Shown piece after piece: positions 1 to 24,276 of a stretch of DNA of 24,276 nt. The position numbers and the translations under genes are program-made. This DNA comes from a virus. Below the pieces are notes generated by a model that was not told the origin of the DNA, did not search any database, and saw only the letters and a program-made list of their open reading frames with translations. The DNA lies in IMG/VR virus record IMGVR_UViG_3300045988_119278, one strand, 5' to 3'. Numbering within the stretch: the first letter of the stretch is position 1; every line of letters starts with the position of its first letter.

Positions 1-119
1 CTCAAAGGAGAAAGCAAAATAAGTTATGGTATTGTCATCATTTATTTGTTTAAAATAATACATATAACAACCTCCTTACTCTACCCAAAAGGCATAGATA
101 TAATAATCTCTTGAACTTA
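1..119. repeat. Terminal overlap copy 1, identical to 24158-24276. Indicates a circular or circularly permuted genome with 24,157 bp unique length.
   Basis: Direct string comparison of the two window ends. The repeat lies inside coding sequence (3' end of CDS 76..507 and 5' end of the CDS annotated at 24065..24220). Confidence 0.95.
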
Positions 120-1401: not shown

Positions 1402-1662
1402 TTAATATGTTTGCCAAATGGCTAATATATCTGAGTTAGTGAGACTATCTAAGCCCACAACCTCACTTGAAATTTCTGCTTTCAATTCTTCTTTATCTTT
1501 TGGAGTGTAGTAATCAACACCCTTAACAGGGGTATCACCCTTATCTCCCTTATCCCCCTTATCACCTTTACCGCCTTTATCACCTTTATAGTAATCAACA
1601 CCTAAGTTTAAATTACCATTCAAAGATTCTTCAACAGAGAGAACACCTTTTATTTCAATCAT
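1402..1662 (-). CDS. Collagen-like (G-X-Y) repeat protein, 86 aa; fibre or capsid-decoration candidate
   Basis: Contains GDKGGKGDKGDKGDKGDTP. RBS AGGAGG is present, the ATG overlaps the upstream TGA (ATGA), and the stop is TAA. Confidence 0.8.
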   Translation of the reverse strand: MIEIKGVLSVEESLNGNLNLGVDYYKGDKGGKGDKGDKGDKGDTPVKGVDYYTPKDKEELKAEISSEVVGLDSLTNSDILAIWQTY

Positions 1663-1988
1663 TGTGTTACCTCCTATCCAATTTCAAAAGTGGCAAAGGG
1701 AACAACGGTATAAATCTTACCTCCAAAAGTGGTAAGTTGAATATCATAGCAATATGTTCCAATAGCAAGAGATTTAGTATCATCAGGTAAGAAGTCAATC
1801 ACACCTTTGCTTGCGGTTTTGGCAAAAGCAATCTGACTGTCTGCGGTCTTTCTTACTGTTAGCGTGATTGTATCATCATCAAATAACTATCTCTCTTTGC
1901 CTGTATTGTCATATACCTTAACTTTAAGTGAAGCATTATCGCCCTTAGTTAAGTATATCTTATTTGTTTTCTCATTGATTTTAAACAA
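1659..1988 (-). CDS. Small beta-rich (Ig-like?) structural protein, 109 aa, with 2 in-frame TAG (1887-1889, 1674-1676)
   Basis: RBS AAGGAGG plus a 9-nt spacer and a TTG start. The frame is open apart from TAG and ends in TGA overlapping the next ATG. It is not in the track because TAG splits it into pieces under 60 aa. Confidence 0.6.
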
Positions 1989-2002
1989 GGCTTTCAACCT
2001 CC

Positions 2003-6376: not shown

Positions 6377-6841
6377 TTAATTAAGTGCGGTTTTTGTGTT
6401 TTGCCCGCCCTTGTTATACTGTTTTACGTGCTCTATCACCATTTCCGCACTTGCTTTCTTGGCTATTGGATTCACTGTATAATGTATTCCGTCCTCTTTT
6501 GGTATTTGGTAATTCATTATAGGCACATACTTTCTAATCCATTTACCTTCAACAATTAGCAAGTTCTTTTTATTGGGGACATACTCTAACACCTCAAAAC
6601 AAAGGGTATAACCCTGTTGGATTATACCCCTAAATACATCATATTTATGTTCTGGTAAGTTTAGTTTTGTATTAACCTAATGCGCTAAGATTCTTTTTAA
6701 TAAATTACTTGCTTTACCAATATAAATGATAACACCATCTATCTTAATACAATAAATACCCGCTTTATCTAAGTGCGGTTTTTGGTTTTTGATTTCCTCA
6801 TATTGCTATATCATTGTTTTGTAATATATATTATCTTTCAT
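6377..6841 (-). CDS. GIY-YIG nuclease (homing-endonuclease-like), 154 aa, with 2 in-frame TAG (6806-6808, 6677-6679)
   Basis: RBS AAAGGAG and ATG at 6839-6841. Sequence is ...KAGIYCIKIDGVIIYIGKASNLLKRILAH[TAG]VN...LLIVEGKWIRKY. Track ORF 6377..6592 is the C-terminal part in the same frame. Stop is TAA. Confidence 0.8.
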
Positions 6842-6960
6842 TGGGGTTACTCCTTTCTTATTTAAAAGTGTAAAAATTATTTGCGGGCGGAACTCCTATT
6901 TAGTGCTTGTGCGGAAACACCCAGCGGGGAAGTTCCTTATAATTTTCTTTTCCATTCTTG

Positions 6961-7007
6961 TTATATGGGGGCTTCCGCTCTCCAAGGCGGAAAAGCCCAC
7001 CATATAA
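6961..7007. other. Long imperfect GC-rich hairpin (about 20 bp stem, loop TCTCCAAG), preceded by a second stem 6889-6894/6931-6936
   Basis: TTATATGGGGGCTTCCGC / GCGGAAAAGCCCACCATATAA pair with two small bulges. The segment is locally GC-rich in an AT-rich genome. There is no adjacent T-run and no convincing ORF. Confidence 0.55.
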
Positions 7008-7042
7008 CTATACTCTGTATAGTCTCTATAATATTTCTGGTA

Positions 7043-7079
7043 GAAATTTACTACCACATAAAGATGAAATTTACTACCA
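7043..7079. repeat. Direct repeat GAAATTTACTACCA x2 (7043-7056 and 7066-7079), followed by short palindromes up to about 7135
   Basis: Exact 14-mer duplication with a 23-bp period. Nearby inverted repeats are CAACTT-ATA-AAGTTG and CACTTT-TGA-AAGTG. Confidence 0.7.
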
Positions 7080-7918: not shown

Positions 7919-8068
7919 TTATTTCTCCTTATTATTAAATTGAGCCATATACCATTTAACCGCTTCTCTAATTAATTGTGATACTGGTATATCTTTTTCT
8001 TTAGCCATTCCCTCAATAGCTTCTTTTAATTCTTCATCAAATCTAACTGTTGCTCTATAATCTTTCAT
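7919..8068 (-). CDS. Ribbon-helix-helix (CopG/Arc-like) protein, 49 aa
   Basis: Sequence MKDYRATVRFDEELKEAIEGMAKEKDIPVSQLIREAVKWYMAQF. The ATG overlaps the upstream TGA and the stop is TAA. Confidence 0.75.
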   Translation of the reverse strand: MKDYRATVRFDEELKEAIEGMAKEKDIPVSQLIREAVKWYMAQFNNKEK

Positions 8069-8226
8069 TCTATTTCAATCTCCTCTTGGTATAAAAGTAA
8101 AAGAGCATATCTAACTACTTCTGACATACTCATATTGTGCTTAATCGCATACTCCTACAATCTTTCTTTCTATTGGAAACTCATCCCAATACATACGTCT
8201 GTTTTTTTATCTTTTGTGTATTTCAT
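8065..8226 (-). CDS. Ribbon-helix-helix protein, 53 aa, with 2 in-frame TAG (8170-8172, 8155-8157)
   Basis: RBS AAGGAG and ATG at 8224-8226. Sequence is MKYTKDKKTDVCIGMSFQ.KERL.EYAIKHNMSMSEVVRYALLLLYQEE. Stop is TGA in an ATGA overlap. Confidence 0.65.
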
Positions 8227-8269
8227 CAATTTACTCCTTGTGTTTGTCAGCGTTTGTCTCCCTCCGCTC

Positions 8270-8304
8270 AAAAAATATAAGGGCTTGCCTAACAGCCCTT
8301 ATAT
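8270..8304 (-). terminator. Hairpin plus T-run (minus strand) just upstream of the RHH operon; terminator or attenuator candidate
   Basis: Stem of 9-11 bp, ATAAGGGCT/AGCCCTTAT, with an 8-nt loop. It is followed on the minus strand by TTTTTT. Confidence 0.5.
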
Positions 8305-8674
8305 CTATGAAAGAAAGGAGTAAAATAACATAAATGACTAAAAACTTTTTTAAAGACTTCCTAGCCTGCTATTATATATAAAAATTAGAGTTAGTTATTT
8401 TATTTAACTCACCCAAAAATTTAAACGAATTTTCAAATAATTAATTTCAATACTTTTATCTAATTTGGATAGGAGAAAGGGGATTAGTATACCCAACTAA
8501 CCCCCATAGTTTATTTACTAACAAATCCCAAATATAGTAGTATCAATTATGATTTAATAACCTTCCAAGAATTAAATCATAACCAATAGGTAAAGAAGTC
8601 ACGGCAGAACTACAGGTAGAGAAGTAGAAAACCCGTTTGCCATTTAAGGCAGTTCCGCTATTCTTTATGTATTT

Positions 8675-8704
8675 ATAATACCAAAAATTTTTCCAAAAGT
8701 CCAA
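8675..8704 (-). promoter_or_regulatory. Candidate promoter TTGGAC-18-TATTAT with an extended -10 TGn
   Basis: Minus strand reads TTGGACTTTTGGAAAAATTTTTGGTATTAT. It would transcribe the 8227-8670 non-coding region toward the RHH operon. Confidence 0.35.
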
Positions 8705-8713
8705 TAAGGGCGG

Positions 8714-8992
8714 TCAGCAAGTCTTTAAGCGCTCATAGGCAAGGGCAACCGCATAATACTTATCATAAATGTCAGTCTTAGGATTCCTATCTGCTACATC
8801 ACTCATAATAGTATCCTCAAAAACGCACAAAACCACATCTTGATAATCTCCTTCATCAAAGCGTTCCTCAACATAGTTACTATCAAGGCGTTCAAAAACG
8901 CAATCATTTAACAACTCTTCAACTTCTTCTCTCTTGGACGTTTTATCAATAATTTCCTCAACATTCATCTTATATAAGTCATTAACTAACAT
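8714..8992 (-). CDS. Highly acidic 92-aa protein, first gene downstream of the leftward switch promoter
   Basis: Intact track ORF with RBS AAAGGAG and a TGA stop. About 24 of 92 residues are D/E. No in-frame TAG. Confidence 0.7.
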   Translation of the reverse strand: MLVNDLYKMNVEEIIDKTSKREEVEELLNDCVFERLDSNYVEERFDEGDYQDVVLCVFEDTIMSDVADRNPKTDIYDKYYAVALAYERLKTC

Positions 8993-9039
8993 TCTTATCT
9001 CTCCTTTTTATCTTTGTTTTTCCTTTATCTTATATATAT

Positions 9040-9068
9040 ATTATATTATTTATTTTTAATAAAATCAA
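9040..9068 (-). promoter_or_regulatory. Sigma-70-like promoter TTGATT-17-TATAAT (leftward)
   Basis: Minus strand has TTGATT at 9068-9063, a 17-nt spacer, and TATAAT at 9045-9040, upstream of CDS 8714..8992. Confidence 0.55.
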
Positions 9069-9275
9069 AAAAGGACTTTTGTATTAGTTATATAATGTTA
9101 TCTTCTCTTTCTTTTGGATATTGCTTTGTATAAAATAAAATTACTCAGTATAAAAGCAAGTTATCTGTCATAAAACTTTTAACCTTAAATGATAGCACTT
9201 TTTATTGAATTTTGCCTTTCATTTTATTGATTTTACACAGAAAATAACTCTCTAATAATTTGTTTAATGTGGATA

Positions 9276-9303
9276 TTGACTTATATAATTCCTTGCCTAT
9301 ACT
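9276..9303 (+). promoter_or_regulatory. Sigma-70-like promoter TTGACT-16-TATACT (rightward)
   Basis: TTGACT at 9276-9281 and TATACT at 9298-9303, about 50 nt upstream of the ATG at 9352. It is divergent from the 9040-9068 promoter. Confidence 0.6.
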
Positions 9304-9351
9304 AATCATCAGGGGAAACCCCACACAAAATAGGAAAGAGAGATAATCACA

Positions 9352-9540
9352 ATGAGAATTAGCCTTGATTTGGAAACCAATGAAATTATTGTCCCCAAGA
9401 ACTTCTTTAAGGAGATTGAAAAAAGGAACGAAATGATTGTTAAAATGGGCGGTGAAGCCATTAAACCCATTGACCTTATTAAAAAGTCCTTTGAAGTGGC
9501 TATGAGTAATACGGACAAGAACTTACACGTGCGCGCTTAA
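9352..9540 (+). CDS. Hypothetical 62-aa protein, first rightward gene
   Basis: Track ORF with a promoter upstream, a weak RBS (AAGAGAG) and a TAA stop. The antisense ORF 9309..9518 is hydrophobic, low-complexity and lacks an RBS. Confidence 0.55.
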   Translation: MRISLDLETNEIIVPKNFFKEIEKRNEMIVKMGGEAIKPIDLIKKSFEVAMSNTDKNLHVRA

Positions 9541-9541
9541 T

Positions 9542-9724
9542 ATGGGAGCAAAGGGGACTAAAGTAACCAGTAGAGAGAAAAAGCGTATGTGGGAACTCTA
9601 CCAGTTGGGTTTAACTTTCTCTGCTATTGGTAAGAAAATGCGTCGTTCACCTGATACAATTAGCAGATACGTCCACGAGTATGAAGCCAGCCTAAATGTA
9701 GCCAACCTATTAACGCAAAAATAA
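9542..9724 (+). CDS. Small HTH DNA-binding protein, 60 aa; regulator or excisionase-like candidate
   Basis: Sequence SREKKRMWELYQLGLTFSAIGKKMRRSPDTISRYV has an HTH pattern. The gene starts 2 nt after the previous stop, ends in TAA, and is convergent with the integrase. Confidence 0.7.
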   Translation: MGAKGTKVTSREKKRMWELYQLGLTFSAIGKKMRRSPDTISRYVHEYEASLNVANLLTQK

Positions 9725-9752
9725 AAAGAAGGGGTTTATGCCCCTTCTTTTT
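9724..9752. terminator. Bidirectional hairpin terminator between convergent genes
   Basis: AAAAAGAAGGGG-TTTATG-CCCCTTCTTTTT, with A-run and T-run flanks. The integrase stop codon lies in the loop. Confidence 0.7.
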
Positions 9753-10662
9753 TCATCTTCTCTGTTAGATTGTCTAATGGATTAAATTGAATCTGTAAGT
9801 CATTGCCATAGAGATTGACATAGTGCCTACTCATATCAATGGTGCTATGTCCCAACCAGCCTTGAAGCTGAACCATACCCCCGCCCGCCATTACAAACTT
9901 TTTGGCAAAGGTGTGTCTAAATAAGTGAGCGGAAGTCTTAGAAACCCCTCTTGAAATGTTGTAGGTTGTCAGGGCATTTTGAAAACCCCTCTTATTAAGC
10001 ATTGCGCCCTCACAGGATGGAAACAAAGGGCTATCAGGTGTCCAGTCCCACGTGTCTAAATACTCTCTCAAAACGGCTTCTAAAGCCTTGGAAAGGGGGA
10101 TTAATTGTTGCTTGCGGTTTTTCATCATTCTCAGAAAGATAAAGCCCTTTTCAAAGTCAATGTCCTTTACCCTCAGATTAATCACCGTGCCTACTCTATT
10201 TCCAGTAGCAATGAGGTAATTGACCGCACACCACATACGCCATTCCGTCCACCTATTGGAATCAGGCTTTTTAAGCAATCTGGCAAGTTCCGCATCAGTA
10301 TAAGGCTCTTTCTCTTCCGCATCCTCTTTCATCAGGGTAATTTCAAGGGGTTTCATATACTCCCTTTCAACCATAAACCTGAAAAACACTCTAAGCCCTC
10401 TAATTCTTGTATTTAAGGAAGTGGTTTTCTTACCCGCATCAATAAGAGACACAAGCCAATCCTCATAAACCTGTTGCGTGACCTCATCCACATATTTAAA
10501 TGTTCCAGCAGTAGAGAAGAAGTATTCAATATCTTCCTCATAGTATCTTAGGGTTTCTTCTCTCAGATTCTTCAATTTACAATGCTTGATGAACTCTGAT
10601 TCAGCTTCTACAATTCCTATGCGCTTTTGGGTCTTTGCGTTTTTGATGGTAGTCATTCTCAT
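9736..10662 (-). CDS. int: Tyrosine recombinase / phage integrase, 308 aa, with no in-frame TAG
   Basis: Intact track ORF. The C-terminal catalytic region is ...AHLFRHTFAKKFVMAGGGMVQLQGWLGHSTIDMSRHYVNLY (R..H-x-x-R..H..Y). GGAGG RBS and TAA stop. Confidence 0.93.
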   Translation of the reverse strand: MRMTTIKNAKTQKRIGIVEAESEFIKHCKLKNLREETLRYYEEDIEYFFSTAGTFKYVDEVTQQVYEDWLVSLIDAGKKTTSLNTRIRGLRVFFRFMVEREYMKPLEITLMKEDAEEKEPYTDAELARLLKKPDSNRWTEWRMWCAVNYLIATGNRVGTVINLRVKDIDFEKGFIFLRMMKNRKQQLIPLSKALEAVLREYLDTWDWTPDSPLFPSCEGAMLNKRGFQNALTTYNISRGVSKTSAHLFRHTFAKKFVMAGGGMVQLQGWLGHSTIDMSRHYVNLYGNDLQIQFNPLDNLTEKMKKEGA

Positions 10663-10721
10663 AGATTATTTTCCTCCATAAAATCCAGTTCTCTACCACC
10701 CCAAGGAATCTAATGTAAAAG

Positions 10722-10750
10722 AAAAAAACTCAAGGGAAAAACCCTTGAGT
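10722..10750 (-). terminator. Rho-independent terminator immediately 3' of the tRNA-like segment
   Basis: Perfect 9-bp stem ACTCAAGGG/CCCTTGAGT with a 5-nt loop, followed on the minus strand by T7. Confidence 0.7.
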
Positions 10751-10759
10751 TTCAACACT

Positions 10760-10815
10760 TTGGTGCGCGAGGCGGGACTTGAACCCGCACGTCCGTAATG
10801 AACACTAGAACCTGA
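10760..10815 (-). other. Probable attP core: 3' portion of a type-II tRNA-Leu(CAG)-like gene, from anticodon loop to CCA; not a complete tRNA
   Basis: Minus strand reads TTCAGGT-TCTAG-TGTTCATTACGGACGT-GCGGGTTCAAGTCCCGC-CTCGCGC-A-CCA. It has a T-arm, a variable arm and the 3' acceptor strand. No 5' acceptor strand (GCGCGAG) or matching 5' anticodon stem lies upstream. It is about 100 bp from the integrase. Confidence 0.7.
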
Positions 10816-10952
10816 ATCCCCGTCTGCCTTACTACTTCTGAGAACTCAAGTTTTTCTTACACCAGCTATTCCCCAAGGTGATTAGCTCTAACTTCTCATT
10901 AGAACTATCCAATGGACGTGTCTATTATACCACAGATTCTATTTTTGTCAAC

Positions 10953-10990
10953 AAAAAAAGGGTTATGGCTTTTAACCATAACCCTTTTTT
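10953..10990. terminator. Strong hairpin terminator (bidirectional flanks) after CDS 10992..11255
   Basis: AAAAAAAGGGTTATGG-CTTTTAA-CCATAACCCTTTTTT, a perfect stem. Confidence 0.8.
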
Positions 10991-10991
10991 A

Positions 10992-11255
10992 TTATCCCTC
11001 TAACTCAGCTAATTCAGCTTGAAGTTTAGCAATCATTTCTTTCTTTTTCTCAATGGTTTTGAGTTTCTTCTTATCCTTACTCTGTTCCGCAATAACCGCT
11101 TTAACTTCATCCTTCTCTAAGAACTCTTTAACAAGGTTGCCAATCACACTAGTGGGGGTAGCACCTTCAACGCCTTTACAATAAATGCTGAGGGCTTCAA
11201 AATCCTTAACCGCAATCTTAATCTCAGGGCGCTTTGTTCTTGTTGTGTTAGCCAT
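10992..11255 (-). CDS. 87-aa protein with an RHH-like N-terminus and charged coiled-coil tail, in an autonomous cassette next to attP
   Basis: Intact track ORF with GGAGG RBS, its own promoter (11288-11316) and terminator. Sequence includes KRPEIKIAVKDFEALSIYCKGVEGATPTSVIGNLVKEFL. No in-frame TAG. Confidence 0.75.
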   Translation of the reverse strand: MANTTRTKRPEIKIAVKDFEALSIYCKGVEGATPTSVIGNLVKEFLEKDEVKAVIAEQSKDKKKLKTIEKKKEMIAKLQAELAELEG

Positions 11256-11287
11256 AAAACAACCTCCATAATTTATTGGATGAGTTA

Positions 11288-11316
11288 ATACTACCTCATT
11301 TACTTGTGATTGTCAA
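11288..11316 (-). promoter_or_regulatory. Sigma-70-like promoter TTGACA-17-TAGTAT
   Basis: Minus strand has TTGACA at 11316-11311, a 17-nt spacer, and TAGTAT at 11293-11288, about 30 nt upstream of the RBS of CDS 10992..11255. Confidence 0.65.
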
Positions 11317-11330
11317 CTAATTTTTTGCCT

Positions 11331-11531
11331 TTATTCCTTAATTTCCTCTTGGATAATAGCAACTTGTTTTTCTAACTGATAAGTGCGTTCTATCAGATTA
11401 TTATGCTTATTAACCTTTTCCTCTAATTCTTTTAATCTATACTCAATCAAAGCAGTAGATTTTCTATTTGCTATCCAAGAACCGCCCAAAGCGCCAATCA
11501 TTCCTAAGATAGCAACAATAATAGCCTACAT
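11331..11531 (-). CDS. Single-pass membrane protein with a coiled coil, 66 aa; lysis-protein (holin/XhlA-like) candidate. TAG is codon 2.
   Basis: AAGGAGG, 7 nt, then ATG TAG GCT... Sequence is M.AIIVAILGMIGALGGSWIANRKSTALIEYRLKELEEKVNKHNNLIERTYQLEKQVAIIQEEIKE. Stop is TAA. It is the last gene of the tail operon. Confidence 0.6.
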
Positions 11532-21634: not shown

Positions 21635-22132
21635 TTAATTCACTAATTCAAAATGAAGTCCCTTTAAGGTTTTCTATCTTCCATTAATCATATGACTTAC
21701 AGCACTATAATCAACTCCAAGAGCCAAAGAAGCATCTCTGCCAGATTTATAAACAACTCCTGTTTCTACACATCTTATAGGTTTGCTTATCTTTTGAGAT
21801 GCCTTTTCATTCCGTGTGCCATAATTTATGTTATAACTGCGGGAACACCATTCTAAATTGTTTTCTTTATTATTATCTTTGTTTTCATCCTTATGGTTTA
21901 CACAAGGATAATTGTTTGGGTTTGGTATAAAATGAAGCGCAACCAATCTACTAACCTATTCTCTTTTTACTTTGCCATTAATAGCATACAAGCAAACAGT
22001 GTGATAGCCTTTTTGGTTTTTATGATGCTTCAAATATATTTGTCTTTTCTTGCTCCAAACCCTACCCATATTACTAATCTAATAGTTTGGGTATCCTTTA
22101 ATATCCATCCAGATTTCATTGTTCTCCAACAT
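21635..22132 (-). CDS. HNH homing endonuclease with a NUMOD4-like N-terminus, 165 aa, with 3 in-frame TAG (22081-22083, 21953-21955, 21674-21676)
   Basis: Sequence is MLENNEIWMDIKGYPNY[TAG]ISNMGRVWS...VSRLVALHFIPNPNNYPCVNHKDENKDNNKENNLEW...HMINGR[TAG]KTLKGLHFELVN. GGAGG RBS and TAA stop. It is inserted between the scaffold and capsid genes. Confidence 0.88.
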
Positions 22133-24084: not shown

Positions 24085-24220
24085 TTGCTTCATCCTCCTT
24101 AATAGCAAGTATGTATTCTTCTTTTGTCATAGGATACATATTACCACTCACTTTTGGCTCAAAGGAGAAAGCAAAATAAGTTATGGTATTGTCATCATTT
24201 ATTTGTTTAAAATAATACAT
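24065..24220 (-). CDS. Hypothetical 51-aa protein. Its 5' end lies in the terminal overlap and is also seen at 1..63.
   Basis: GGAGG RBS and ATG at 24218-24220 (equivalent to 61-63). Sequence is MYYFKQINDDNTITYFAFSFEPKVSGNMYPMTKEEYILAIKEDEANASAEI. Stop is TAA. Confidence 0.5.
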   Translation of the reverse strand: MYYFKQINDDNTITYFAFSFEPKVSGNMYPMTKEEYILAIKEDEANASAEI

Positions 24221-24276
24221 ATAACAACCTCCTTACTCTACCCAAAAGGCATAGATATAATAATCTCTTGAACTTA
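24158..24276. repeat. Terminal overlap copy 2, identical to 1-119
   Basis: Direct string comparison. Confidence 0.95.

Follow-up and report, generated by a model that had tools for sequence, protein, structure and literature searches.

Why do the genes of one block in a phage genome contain no TAG codon, when most other genes of the same genome use TAG as a sense codon? The question is raised by positions 8227–11330 of the IMG/VR virus record IMGVR_UViG_3300045988_119278, whose whole stretch of 24,276 nucleotides is hereafter called the window. The block encodes a tyrosine integrase (int) with its phage attachment site (attP), an operon for a 62-amino-acid (aa) protein and a 60-aa helix-turn-helix (HTH) protein, an acidic 92-aa protein and an 87-aa protein. 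The explanation that we favour, with a probability of about 0.62, is that these genes are kept free of TAG by selection, because they would be needed while UAG still terminates translation, both on entry into the cell and in the lysogen.

Read with the bacterial code, the window splits into a patchwork of short open reading frames (ORFs), whereas with TAG as a sense codon it resolves into an ordered map of genes that tile it almost entirely on the minus strand. The length covered by ORFs of at least 100 aa rises accordingly from 10.4 to 21.8 kb. TAG then occurs in frame 64 times, in 28 of the 36 genes, and only TAA and TGA serve as stops. Opposite these codons, the majority residue in standard-code orthologs (six genomes) is Gln at about 30–40% of the sites, followed by Glu and Lys, and CAG<->TAG is the dominant type of TAG polymorphism among near-identical strains (13 of 23). 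Because of these alignments and polymorphisms, Gln is the best reading of the codon, and we assign code 15 to the phage on this comparative evidence. The exact direct repeat of 119 bp at the ends of the window (1–119 and 24158–24276) shows that the genome, of about 24,157 bp (24.16 kb), is complete and was assembled as a circle, and hence that the absence of tRNA genes discussed below holds for the whole phage and not for a fragment. Judging from its predicted genes, it is a small temperate siphovirus with TAG reassigned to Gln.

The five coding sequences of the block contain no in-frame TAG in 609 sense codons (614 with the stops), and none of them ends in TAG. At the rate found outside the block (64 TAG in 6,803 codons, 0.94%), 5.7 would be expected. 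A previous interpretation made from the letters of the window, the sequence-only reading, had reported the five TAG-free coding sequences, had estimated about five missing codons and had stated that the genes on either side require read-through (Table 1), all of which was borne out. If the block is treated as though it had been specified beforehand, the nominal probability of finding no TAG is 0.003 (Fisher test 0.006–0.009), and under a null model that takes the Gln content into account it is 0.018–0.027, since the block has only 15 Gln codons and 23% of the Gln codons elsewhere are TAG. The integrase alone, with 10 Gln codons, gives P ~0.06. Counted in all frames, the TAG trinucleotide is not depleted (12.9 per kb in the block and 15.6 elsewhere), so that the codon is missing from the reading frame only. 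When the choice of the block after the fact is allowed for, P lies between 0.03 and 0.2. The absence of TAG as seen in one genome is thus only suggestive, and after this correction the five genes taken together do not reach significance in the window genome.

The integrases of related phages provide an independent comparison. Searches of IMG/VR with TerL, the large terminase subunit, yielded about 65 related contigs of roughly 20–24 kb (cited by L-numbers), most of which use the standard code. The TAG-recoded lineages are the window group, the L005/L009/L035/L039 group, L065/L067, L062 and L057, while L068, L070, L071 and L083 are apparently TGA-recoded. Eight recoded genomes bear an integrase (the window, L039, L005, L009, L035, L062 and L065 for TAG, L068 for TGA), and in all eight this gene lacks the reassigned codon, with 5–18 opportunities each; the integrase of L068 accordingly has no in-frame TGA. 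The sequence-only reading had named TAG codons inside the integrases of relatives as evidence that would refute it, and none were seen. These eight proteins span at least five families, with 21–35% mutual identity. The Gln-aware P for the recoded genomes with an integrase ranges from 0.003 to 0.11, and a Fisher combination with one such value per integrase family gives about 1e-4 (worked by hand). Copies of the window integrase at 87% and 85% identity in other recoded phages are also TAG-free, and the sole TAG assigned to the L089 integrase precedes the real start, in a stretch wrongly added to the N terminus. We also observed that a single TerL family (55–73% identity; L010–L088) mixes standard-code, several TAG-recoded and apparent TGA-recoded lineages.

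Codon turnover gives further support for exclusion of TAG from the cassette. Between the window and L039 or L089, the cassette genes are close to synonymous saturation (pS, the proportion of synonymous sites that differ, 0.6–0.9), with a ratio of nonsynonymous to synonymous differences (pN/pS) of 0.04–0.12. At conserved Gln positions of these genes we counted 16 CAA<->CAG flips and no flip involving TAG, which occupies 0 of 59 positions, as compared with 22 CAA<->CAG and 31 TAG flips in the backbone of the same genome pairs, where TAG occupies 51 of 120 positions (Fisher P = 1.8e-5; P = 0.009 with non-overlapping genome pairs only). The HTH gene illustrates this pattern, as both Gln codons that it shares with L039 have flipped between CAA and CAG, neither of them to TAG. 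Beyond the integrase, TAG-free orthologs were found for the HTH and 62-aa genes in L039 and for the 87-aa gene in L089, and an additional acidic immediate-early ORF in L049 and L051 is likewise TAG-free; for the non-integrase cassette genes the Gln-aware product over three synonymously saturated lineages is about 0.02 (calculated by hand, the lineages being taken as independent). These comparisons show that the integrase avoids TAG while all the remaining gene classes use it freely, and they are only suggestive of the same avoidance in the other genes of the block.

In the explanation that we favour, the block is the phage's module for entry and lysogeny: besides the integrase and attP it holds the small HTH operon, the one unit that runs counter to lytic transcription, together with a moron-like gene next to attP and the gene that comes first after the early promoter. 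A change from CAG to TAG would be silent in a lytic gene and would truncate an entry or lysogeny protein, so that selection would remove it from the block, while elsewhere in the genome TAG and CAG/CAA would swap freely. Host-type consensus promoters, together with the block's own terminators, would permit a minimal lysogeny programme without read-through. We infer both the expression timing of the block genes and that host-type sigma-70 promoters would suffice to express int, with no phage factor needed. The proposal of the sequence-only reading that the block is a lysogeny or establishment module readable in the standard code is therefore retained strongly for the integrase and suggestively for its neighbours; for the five genes as one unit it did not survive the post-hoc correction.

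Several observations weigh against such selection. First, a scan for the longest TAG-free run genome-wide gives P = 0.09 with uniform placement and 0.22 with placement on Gln positions, by which measure the run in this genome alone is not significant; the longest run of whole TAG-free genes gives P = 0.03–0.04. Second, the four non-integrase genes of the block hold only five Gln codons, with P ~0.25 when taken alone. Third, TAG polymorphism among 14 near-identical genomes shows 23 events in the backbone and none in the block, where about two were expected, a test without power whose integrase set is in addition biased, having been collected by exact-protein look-up. Fourth, TAG does occur in some small ORFs that adjoin integrases in other relatives, although most of these look like antisense artefacts; a test of all opposite-strand ORFs beside these integrases was dropped because most were hydrophobic antisense artefacts. 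Finally, the cassettes are mobile, so that ancestry could contribute to the pattern, and the lack of a suppressor combined with TAG in the earliest lytic genes leaves a two-code switch without a visible trigger; these two points are taken up below. The first three would be expected if the TAG-free block had arisen by chance, at least outside the integrase, given that small Gln-poor genes are often without TAG (six others, of 49–130 aa, lie outside the block) and that the block was picked post hoc. Chance does not readily account for the replication across cassette orthologs and independent families of integrase, for the product of about 0.02 reached by the non-integrase genes over three lineages, or for the published clade-wide avoidance (P = 1e-16), and we consider it quite unlikely.

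The mobility of the cassettes is clear from the identities between genomes: L009 and L005 share 93–100% identity in the backbone and 75% in the integrase, while the window and L039 share 72% in the backbone and 87% in the integrase, a pattern that clearly points to exchange of integrase cassettes between backbones. Cassettes recently imported from standard-code phages or host islands would have spent little time in a recoded genome and might lack TAG for this reason. The presence of at least five unrelated integrase families within one TerL family fits this idea, as does the base composition of the block, whose GC content is the highest in the phage (int 41% GC, with a GC content at third codon positions, GC3, of 0.45 as compared with ~0.30 in the backbone). 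So do the nearest non-phage relatives of the window integrase type (int-1), at ~64–65% identity, which lie in bacterial islands, as found for the three next-tier proteins examined (P0005, P0008 and P0013; 64–65%). Yet in a database of 5.8 billion proteins all relatives of the window integrase at 85% identity or more reside in TAG-recoded phages, the next tier starting at 66% or below, and no close copy was found among the standard-code relatives examined, the best of which reach 64% for int-1 and 47% for int-2. The cassette alleles have moreover diverged almost to synonymous saturation between recoded lineages, with CAA<->CAG exchanges common and TAG absent, and backbone genes with a similarly high GC3 hold plenty of TAG. 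We thus regard recent import as unlikely.

The same divergence bears on a possible effect of evolutionary rate. TAG-containing genes mutate faster in recoded gut phages (bioRxiv 10.1101/2023.08.07.552389), and TAG might simply gather in fast-evolving genes if integrases and regulators evolve slowly. This explanation fails, since the integrases have diverged further than the backbones, with synonymous sites near saturation; in addition, the conserved TerL, portal protein and major capsid protein all contain TAG. We give it hardly any credence.

The features of the block and of its two flanking genes are listed in Table 1.

Table 1. Features predicted in and around the TAG-free block (window positions)
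Feature	Position	Strand	Remarks
Left flank, Arc/CopG-like ribbon-helix-helix (RHH) regulator, probably Cro-like	8065..8226	-	2 in-frame TAG; phrog_876 E=4e-7, weak RHH_1 Pfam match
Terminator-like hairpins after 92-aa gene	8505-8479 (scan); ~8310-8272 (sequence reading)		Before TAG-containing RHH genes
92-aa acidic all-helical orphan	8714..8992	-	0 TAG; first gene behind leftward promoter (immediate-early slot)
Leftward promoter (early lytic, sigma-70-like)	9040..9068	-	TTGATT-17-TATAAT, 10/12 matches
Rightward promoter of 62-aa/60-aa operon	9276..9303	+	TTGACT-16-TATACT, 10/12 matches
62-aa protein, first gene of the only plus-strand operon	9352..9540	+	0 TAG; no family match
60-aa HTH protein, putative prophage repressor/regulator	9542..9724	+	0 TAG
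Bidirectional terminator hairpin	9723..9752	both	Between convergent HTH operon and int
Tyrosine integrase	9736..10662	-	308 aa, 0 TAG, 10 Gln codons; PF00589, PF02899, phrog_1
tRNA-Leu gene terminator	10725..10753	-	Phage side of attP, inside the 145 bp identical to the attB region
attP core	10761..10818	-	3' 58 nt of host tRNA-Leu(CAG), anticodon stem to CCA
Perfect promoter	10924..10951	-	TTGACA-16-TATAAT, TG before (extended -10); 12/12 matches; conserved in L089
Terminator of 87-aa gene	~10953-10990
87-aa orphan, moron-like position beside attP	10992..11255	-	0 TAG
Promoter of 87-aa gene	11288-11316		10/12 consensus matches
Right flank, holin-like single-transmembrane protein	11331..11531	-	TAG at codon 2

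The integrase is identified by PF00589 over residues 124–284 (E = 4.5e-26), by the N-terminal SAM-like domain PF02899 (E = 2e-8) and by phrog_1 (E = 1e-38), and it contains the HxxR motif (as HLFRH) and the C-terminal RHY. The small ORFs of the block are also real genes, since selective constraint is evident from their orthologs: 74% identity and pN/pS 0.12 for the 62-aa protein and 92% and 0.04 for the 60-aa protein (both in L039), and ~87–90% and 0.07 for the 87-aa protein, whose ortholog in L089 is TAG-free. The 60-aa protein matches the Pfam families HTH_38 (E = 9e-6) and HTH_23 (E = 4e-5), in both cases slightly under the gathering score. The 87-aa protein had been labelled RHH-like in the sequence-only reading, a label that is unsupported: no RHH family of Pfam or PHROGs matched it at E<=0.01, hhalign returned a probability of 0.3% against the window's own RHH protein, and a profile search of the PDB gave no RHH. 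Its AlphaFold2 monomer (predicted local distance difference test, pLDDT, 78) has an extended N-terminal segment followed by helices at 19–27, 34–46 and 49–86, an order compatible with RHH, but Foldseek found no match. For the 92-aa protein no match was obtained in Pfam or PHROGs, its relatives are confined to the window lineage, and its AlphaFold2 model (mean pLDDT 71) matches no fold in the PDB. Homolog searches, exhaustive profile searches, AlphaFold2 and Foldseek gave nothing usable on the function of the 92-aa and 87-aa proteins, and a match to a 1677-aa protein with FN3 repeats and another to a 159-aa fusion look spurious.

The 359-bp divergent region holds the leftward and the rightward promoter, both of which are kept although their surroundings have diverged in L039. 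The -35 and -10 elements of the leftward promoter, predicted to drive the 92-aa gene, are preserved there, and the equivalent of the rightward promoter is a perfect TTGACA-17-TATAAT. The block had been credited with its own promoters and terminators. The three sites named do exist, with 10/12 matches each, and two of them are conserved; the total of promoter-like sites is not in excess of that in shuffled sequences (16 compared with 12.9 +/- 3.5), whereas terminator-like sites are enriched (6 compared with 2.3 +/- 1.7). The divergent region separates the HTH regulator from the RHH regulators, and a search for operators within it found only a weak two-copy repeat, GGATATTG, and no convincing operators. 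In L049 (11691–11954) and L051 (11692–11955), an extra small acidic ORF of 87 aa, TAG-free and unrelated to the 87-aa gene of the window, is inserted at window position ~9005–9074, where it becomes the promoter-proximal gene of the leftward unit, and ~70 bp of the leader are duplicated around it. The immediate-early slot thus appears to be a variable cassette site for acidic orphans, and these could be anti-defence genes. As regards the right flank, the orthologs of the holin-like gene in L005 (4790–4999), L009 (2344–2556), L035 (4662–4871) and L089 (627–839) have one TAG each, at codon 35; the different position in the window suggests independent acquisition of TAG in this lysis gene.

The attachment site could be defined exactly and leads to the host. 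In contig 087506 an integrase identical to that of the window is immediately preceded by an intact tRNA-Leu(CAG), and in this contig and four further host-flanked ones, which include up to 10 kb of host sequence, the switch from host to phage falls exactly at window position 10818. The 58-bp core is common to empty bacterial attachment sites (attB) in Oscillospiraceae genomes, and identity with the attB region of Hominicoprocola fusiformis extends over 145 bp, reaching position 10674. The host flanks have 54–60% GC, use the standard code with some genes ending in TAG, and include SpoVAC/SpoVAD, SIR2 and other Firmicute genes; the SIR2 gene is 98–99% identical to that of two strains of H. fusiformis (Oscillospiraceae), in whose reference genomes attB is empty. 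These junctions and flanks, the latter 99% identical to H. fusiformis, identify this species, which uses the standard genetic code, as the host and tRNA-Leu(CAG) as the integration site. The gap between the GC content of the phage (35%) and that of its host is unusually wide for a temperate phage.

Tyrosine integrases that target tRNA genes, of the P4, P22 and HP1 type, use an attP that carries the 3' end of the tRNA gene. The window attP is of this kind, and since it holds the 3' 58 nt of tRNA-Leu, integration would rebuild an intact tRNA gene, for which the phage also supplies the terminator. It differs only by what lies upstream of the core, namely a decayed 5' half of tRNA-Leu and a consensus promoter. 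The decayed half stands directly 5' of the core (~10819–10850, minus strand) and reads GAAGTAGTAAGGCAGACGGG in the phage as compared with GAGTGGTGGAATTGGCAGACTCGCTA in the host; neither ARAGORN nor Infernal calls a tRNA in this copy, and the variable arm shows a compensatory base-pair change between the phage and host copies of the gene. The perfect promoter at 10924–10951 reads across attP toward int, and a scan found no other promoter-like site on the minus strand between it and int. Its location on the far side of attP means that integration would disconnect int from it. In the split-operon control of phage P2, integration likewise separates int from its promoter; in the window the promoter is a predicted one, and the tRNA terminator alone intervenes between it and int. 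The transcript expected from this promoter (~200 nt: leader, 3' half of tRNA-Leu and terminator) folds unusually stably (z = -4.0).

If the lytic genes need UAG to be read as Gln, the question arises how this is achieved. ARAGORN detected no tRNA in the window genome and Rfam none at E<=1, the only tRNA-like signal being the 3' fragment of tRNA-Leu in attP. The stably folding transcript was considered as a cryptic suppressor tRNA and rejected, as it is not a tRNA and its anticodon stays CAG. No suppressor tRNA was found in 11 recoded relatives (set L001–L009, L034–L036), and no matches to release-factor or aminoacyl-tRNA synthetase genes were found in the window genome or in recoded relatives. 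TAG is present in early lytic regulators, with two in the Cro-like RHH gene, one at codon 10 of the replication gene and others in the next two genes. With this gene content, no known route would allow the complete genome to set off a code switch by itself, and the start of a simple phage-timed switch is hard to see. The claim that lytic functions require suppression is true of the sequence, which nevertheless demonstrates no switch timed by the phage. A search for a gene family specific to recoded lineages that could act as effector, in partial loci, found none, the best candidate carrying TAG and occurring in one clade only. A 112-aa protein of phrog_1084, encoded downstream of the Mu-F-like gene (1659–1997, minus strand), was found in 7 of the 11 TAG-recoded loci, in 2 of the 3 that are TGA-recoded and in only 1 of the 35 standard-code relatives. 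Its gene itself contains TAG and therefore cannot start the switch, and the skew may reflect phylogeny.

UAG could be made readable by a host suppressor, by a helper prophage or by a route other than a tRNA, such as antagonism of release factor 1 (RF1). It has also to be considered whether the host always reads UAG weakly, via a near-cognate tRNA-Gln, so that TAG acts as a translational attenuator which int and the repressor, needing full output at low copy number, would avoid. The lack of a phage suppressor tRNA and the presence of TAG in early lytic genes would then need no switch. However, proteins with 5–9 TAG, such as the tape measure, TerL and a tail fibre, could not be made at useful levels in this way, the host uses TAG as a stop, and the +4 context of TAG is the same as that of CAA/CAG codons (P = 0.77 pooled), with no read-through signature. 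We consider permanent leaky read-through improbable. A speculative alternative, and a long shot, is that a TAG-free immediate-early protein neutralizes host RF1, whereupon the abundant host tRNA-Gln(CUG) would read UAG through a G:U pair at the first codon position. The best candidate for such an antagonist would be the acidic 92-aa orphan, because its gene stands nearest to the early promoter, has terminators around it and occupies the slot that holds other acidic orphans in sister strains. If true, RF1 antagonism would explain why a complete genome of 24 kb that depends on 64 TAG codons lacks a suppressor, as well as the choice of Gln as the reassigned residue and the standard code of the very first genes.

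Selection on genes read before UAG is suppressed has a close precedent in the Topaz phages, which are TAG-recoded and 22 +/- 3 kb in size (Borges et al., bioRxiv 10.1101/2021.08.26.457843; Nat Microbiol 2022). In the published example, an integrase and a tRNA delimit a prophage of 23.7 kb within an Oscillospiraceae genome; the integrase families of the clade avoid TAG (P = 1.2e-16), which led to the proposal of a lysogeny switch, in a model where the phage changes code part-way through infection (bioRxiv 10.1101/2021.08.26.457843). In the literature searched we found no experimental test of this hypothesis. The window phage resembles the Topaz phages in its size of ~22–24 kb, in TAG as sense codon in almost all genes, in its higher-GC Oscillospiraceae host with the standard code, in integration at a tRNA gene and in its TAG-free integrase, a match made on the description of the clade. 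It differs in its site, tRNA-Leu(CAG) instead of the tRNA-Thr of the published example; L006, whose contig ends with tRNA-Thr(CGT) and an adjoining GC-rich ORF, apparently integrates at tRNA-Thr. The lack of a suppressor has a parallel too, as suppressor tRNAs are detectable in only 40% of TAG-recoded genomes (bioRxiv 10.1101/2021.08.26.457843). Relative to the Topaz report, the TAG-free set of the window adds the HTH operon, the moron-like gene and the immediate-early acidic gene, and the host is a named, cultured species. With crAss-like and Lak phages the window phage shares TAG as Gln and a division between structural and lysis genes that need the reassigned codon and some genes readable in the standard code. 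Those phages are large and virulent, have their own suppressor tRNA or RF2, and often keep early replication genes in the standard code, in contrast with the window phage, which is small and temperate, has no tRNA and carries TAG even in early regulators and the replication gene.

The remainder of the genome has the predicted inventory of a siphovirus. Packaging and head genes encode TerS, TerL, the portal, a Mu-F-like minor head protein, the scaffold and the major capsid protein, and tail genes encode the tail tube, chaperones, a 1025-aa tape measure and a 1072-aa Ig-repeat tail protein, whose C terminus is a long glycine-rich region (weak Gly_rich_2 Pfam match). Other genes, besides the tyrosine integrase, encode the holin-like protein, a replication-initiator-like winged-helix protein and two Arc/CopG-type RHH regulators; no endolysin was recognizable in the complete genome. 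Two genes resemble homing endonucleases (21635–22132 and 6377–7057, both on the minus strand) and both contain TAG; one, an HNH gene between scaffold and major capsid, has no ortholog in L005–L009 or L035, and the other, which is GIY-YIG-like, lies upstream of terS. A megablast search of INPHARED with the whole genome as query gave no match.

Taken together, the observation made on this block is real, yet already published for this phage group: the Topaz report described TAG-free integrases and advanced the same hypothesis, so that the idea is not new and the window phage is a further instance of it. That two incompatible genetic codes would operate in one cell, divided according to the life cycle of the phage, is a striking form of gene regulation, which has likewise been reported before. 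What our analysis adds is, first, codon-level evidence suggesting that TAG is actively excluded from the integrase cassette, which weakens the explanation by recent import, together with a hint of the same constraint on the immediate-early genes and on the operon of the putative repressor. Second, it states clearly the problem of the missing suppressor. Third, it provides an exact attP and a named host with cultured isolates, which makes infection, lysogeny and proteomics experiments conceivable. The residual interest of this phage lies in the combination of a missing suppressor with a host species that is in culture.

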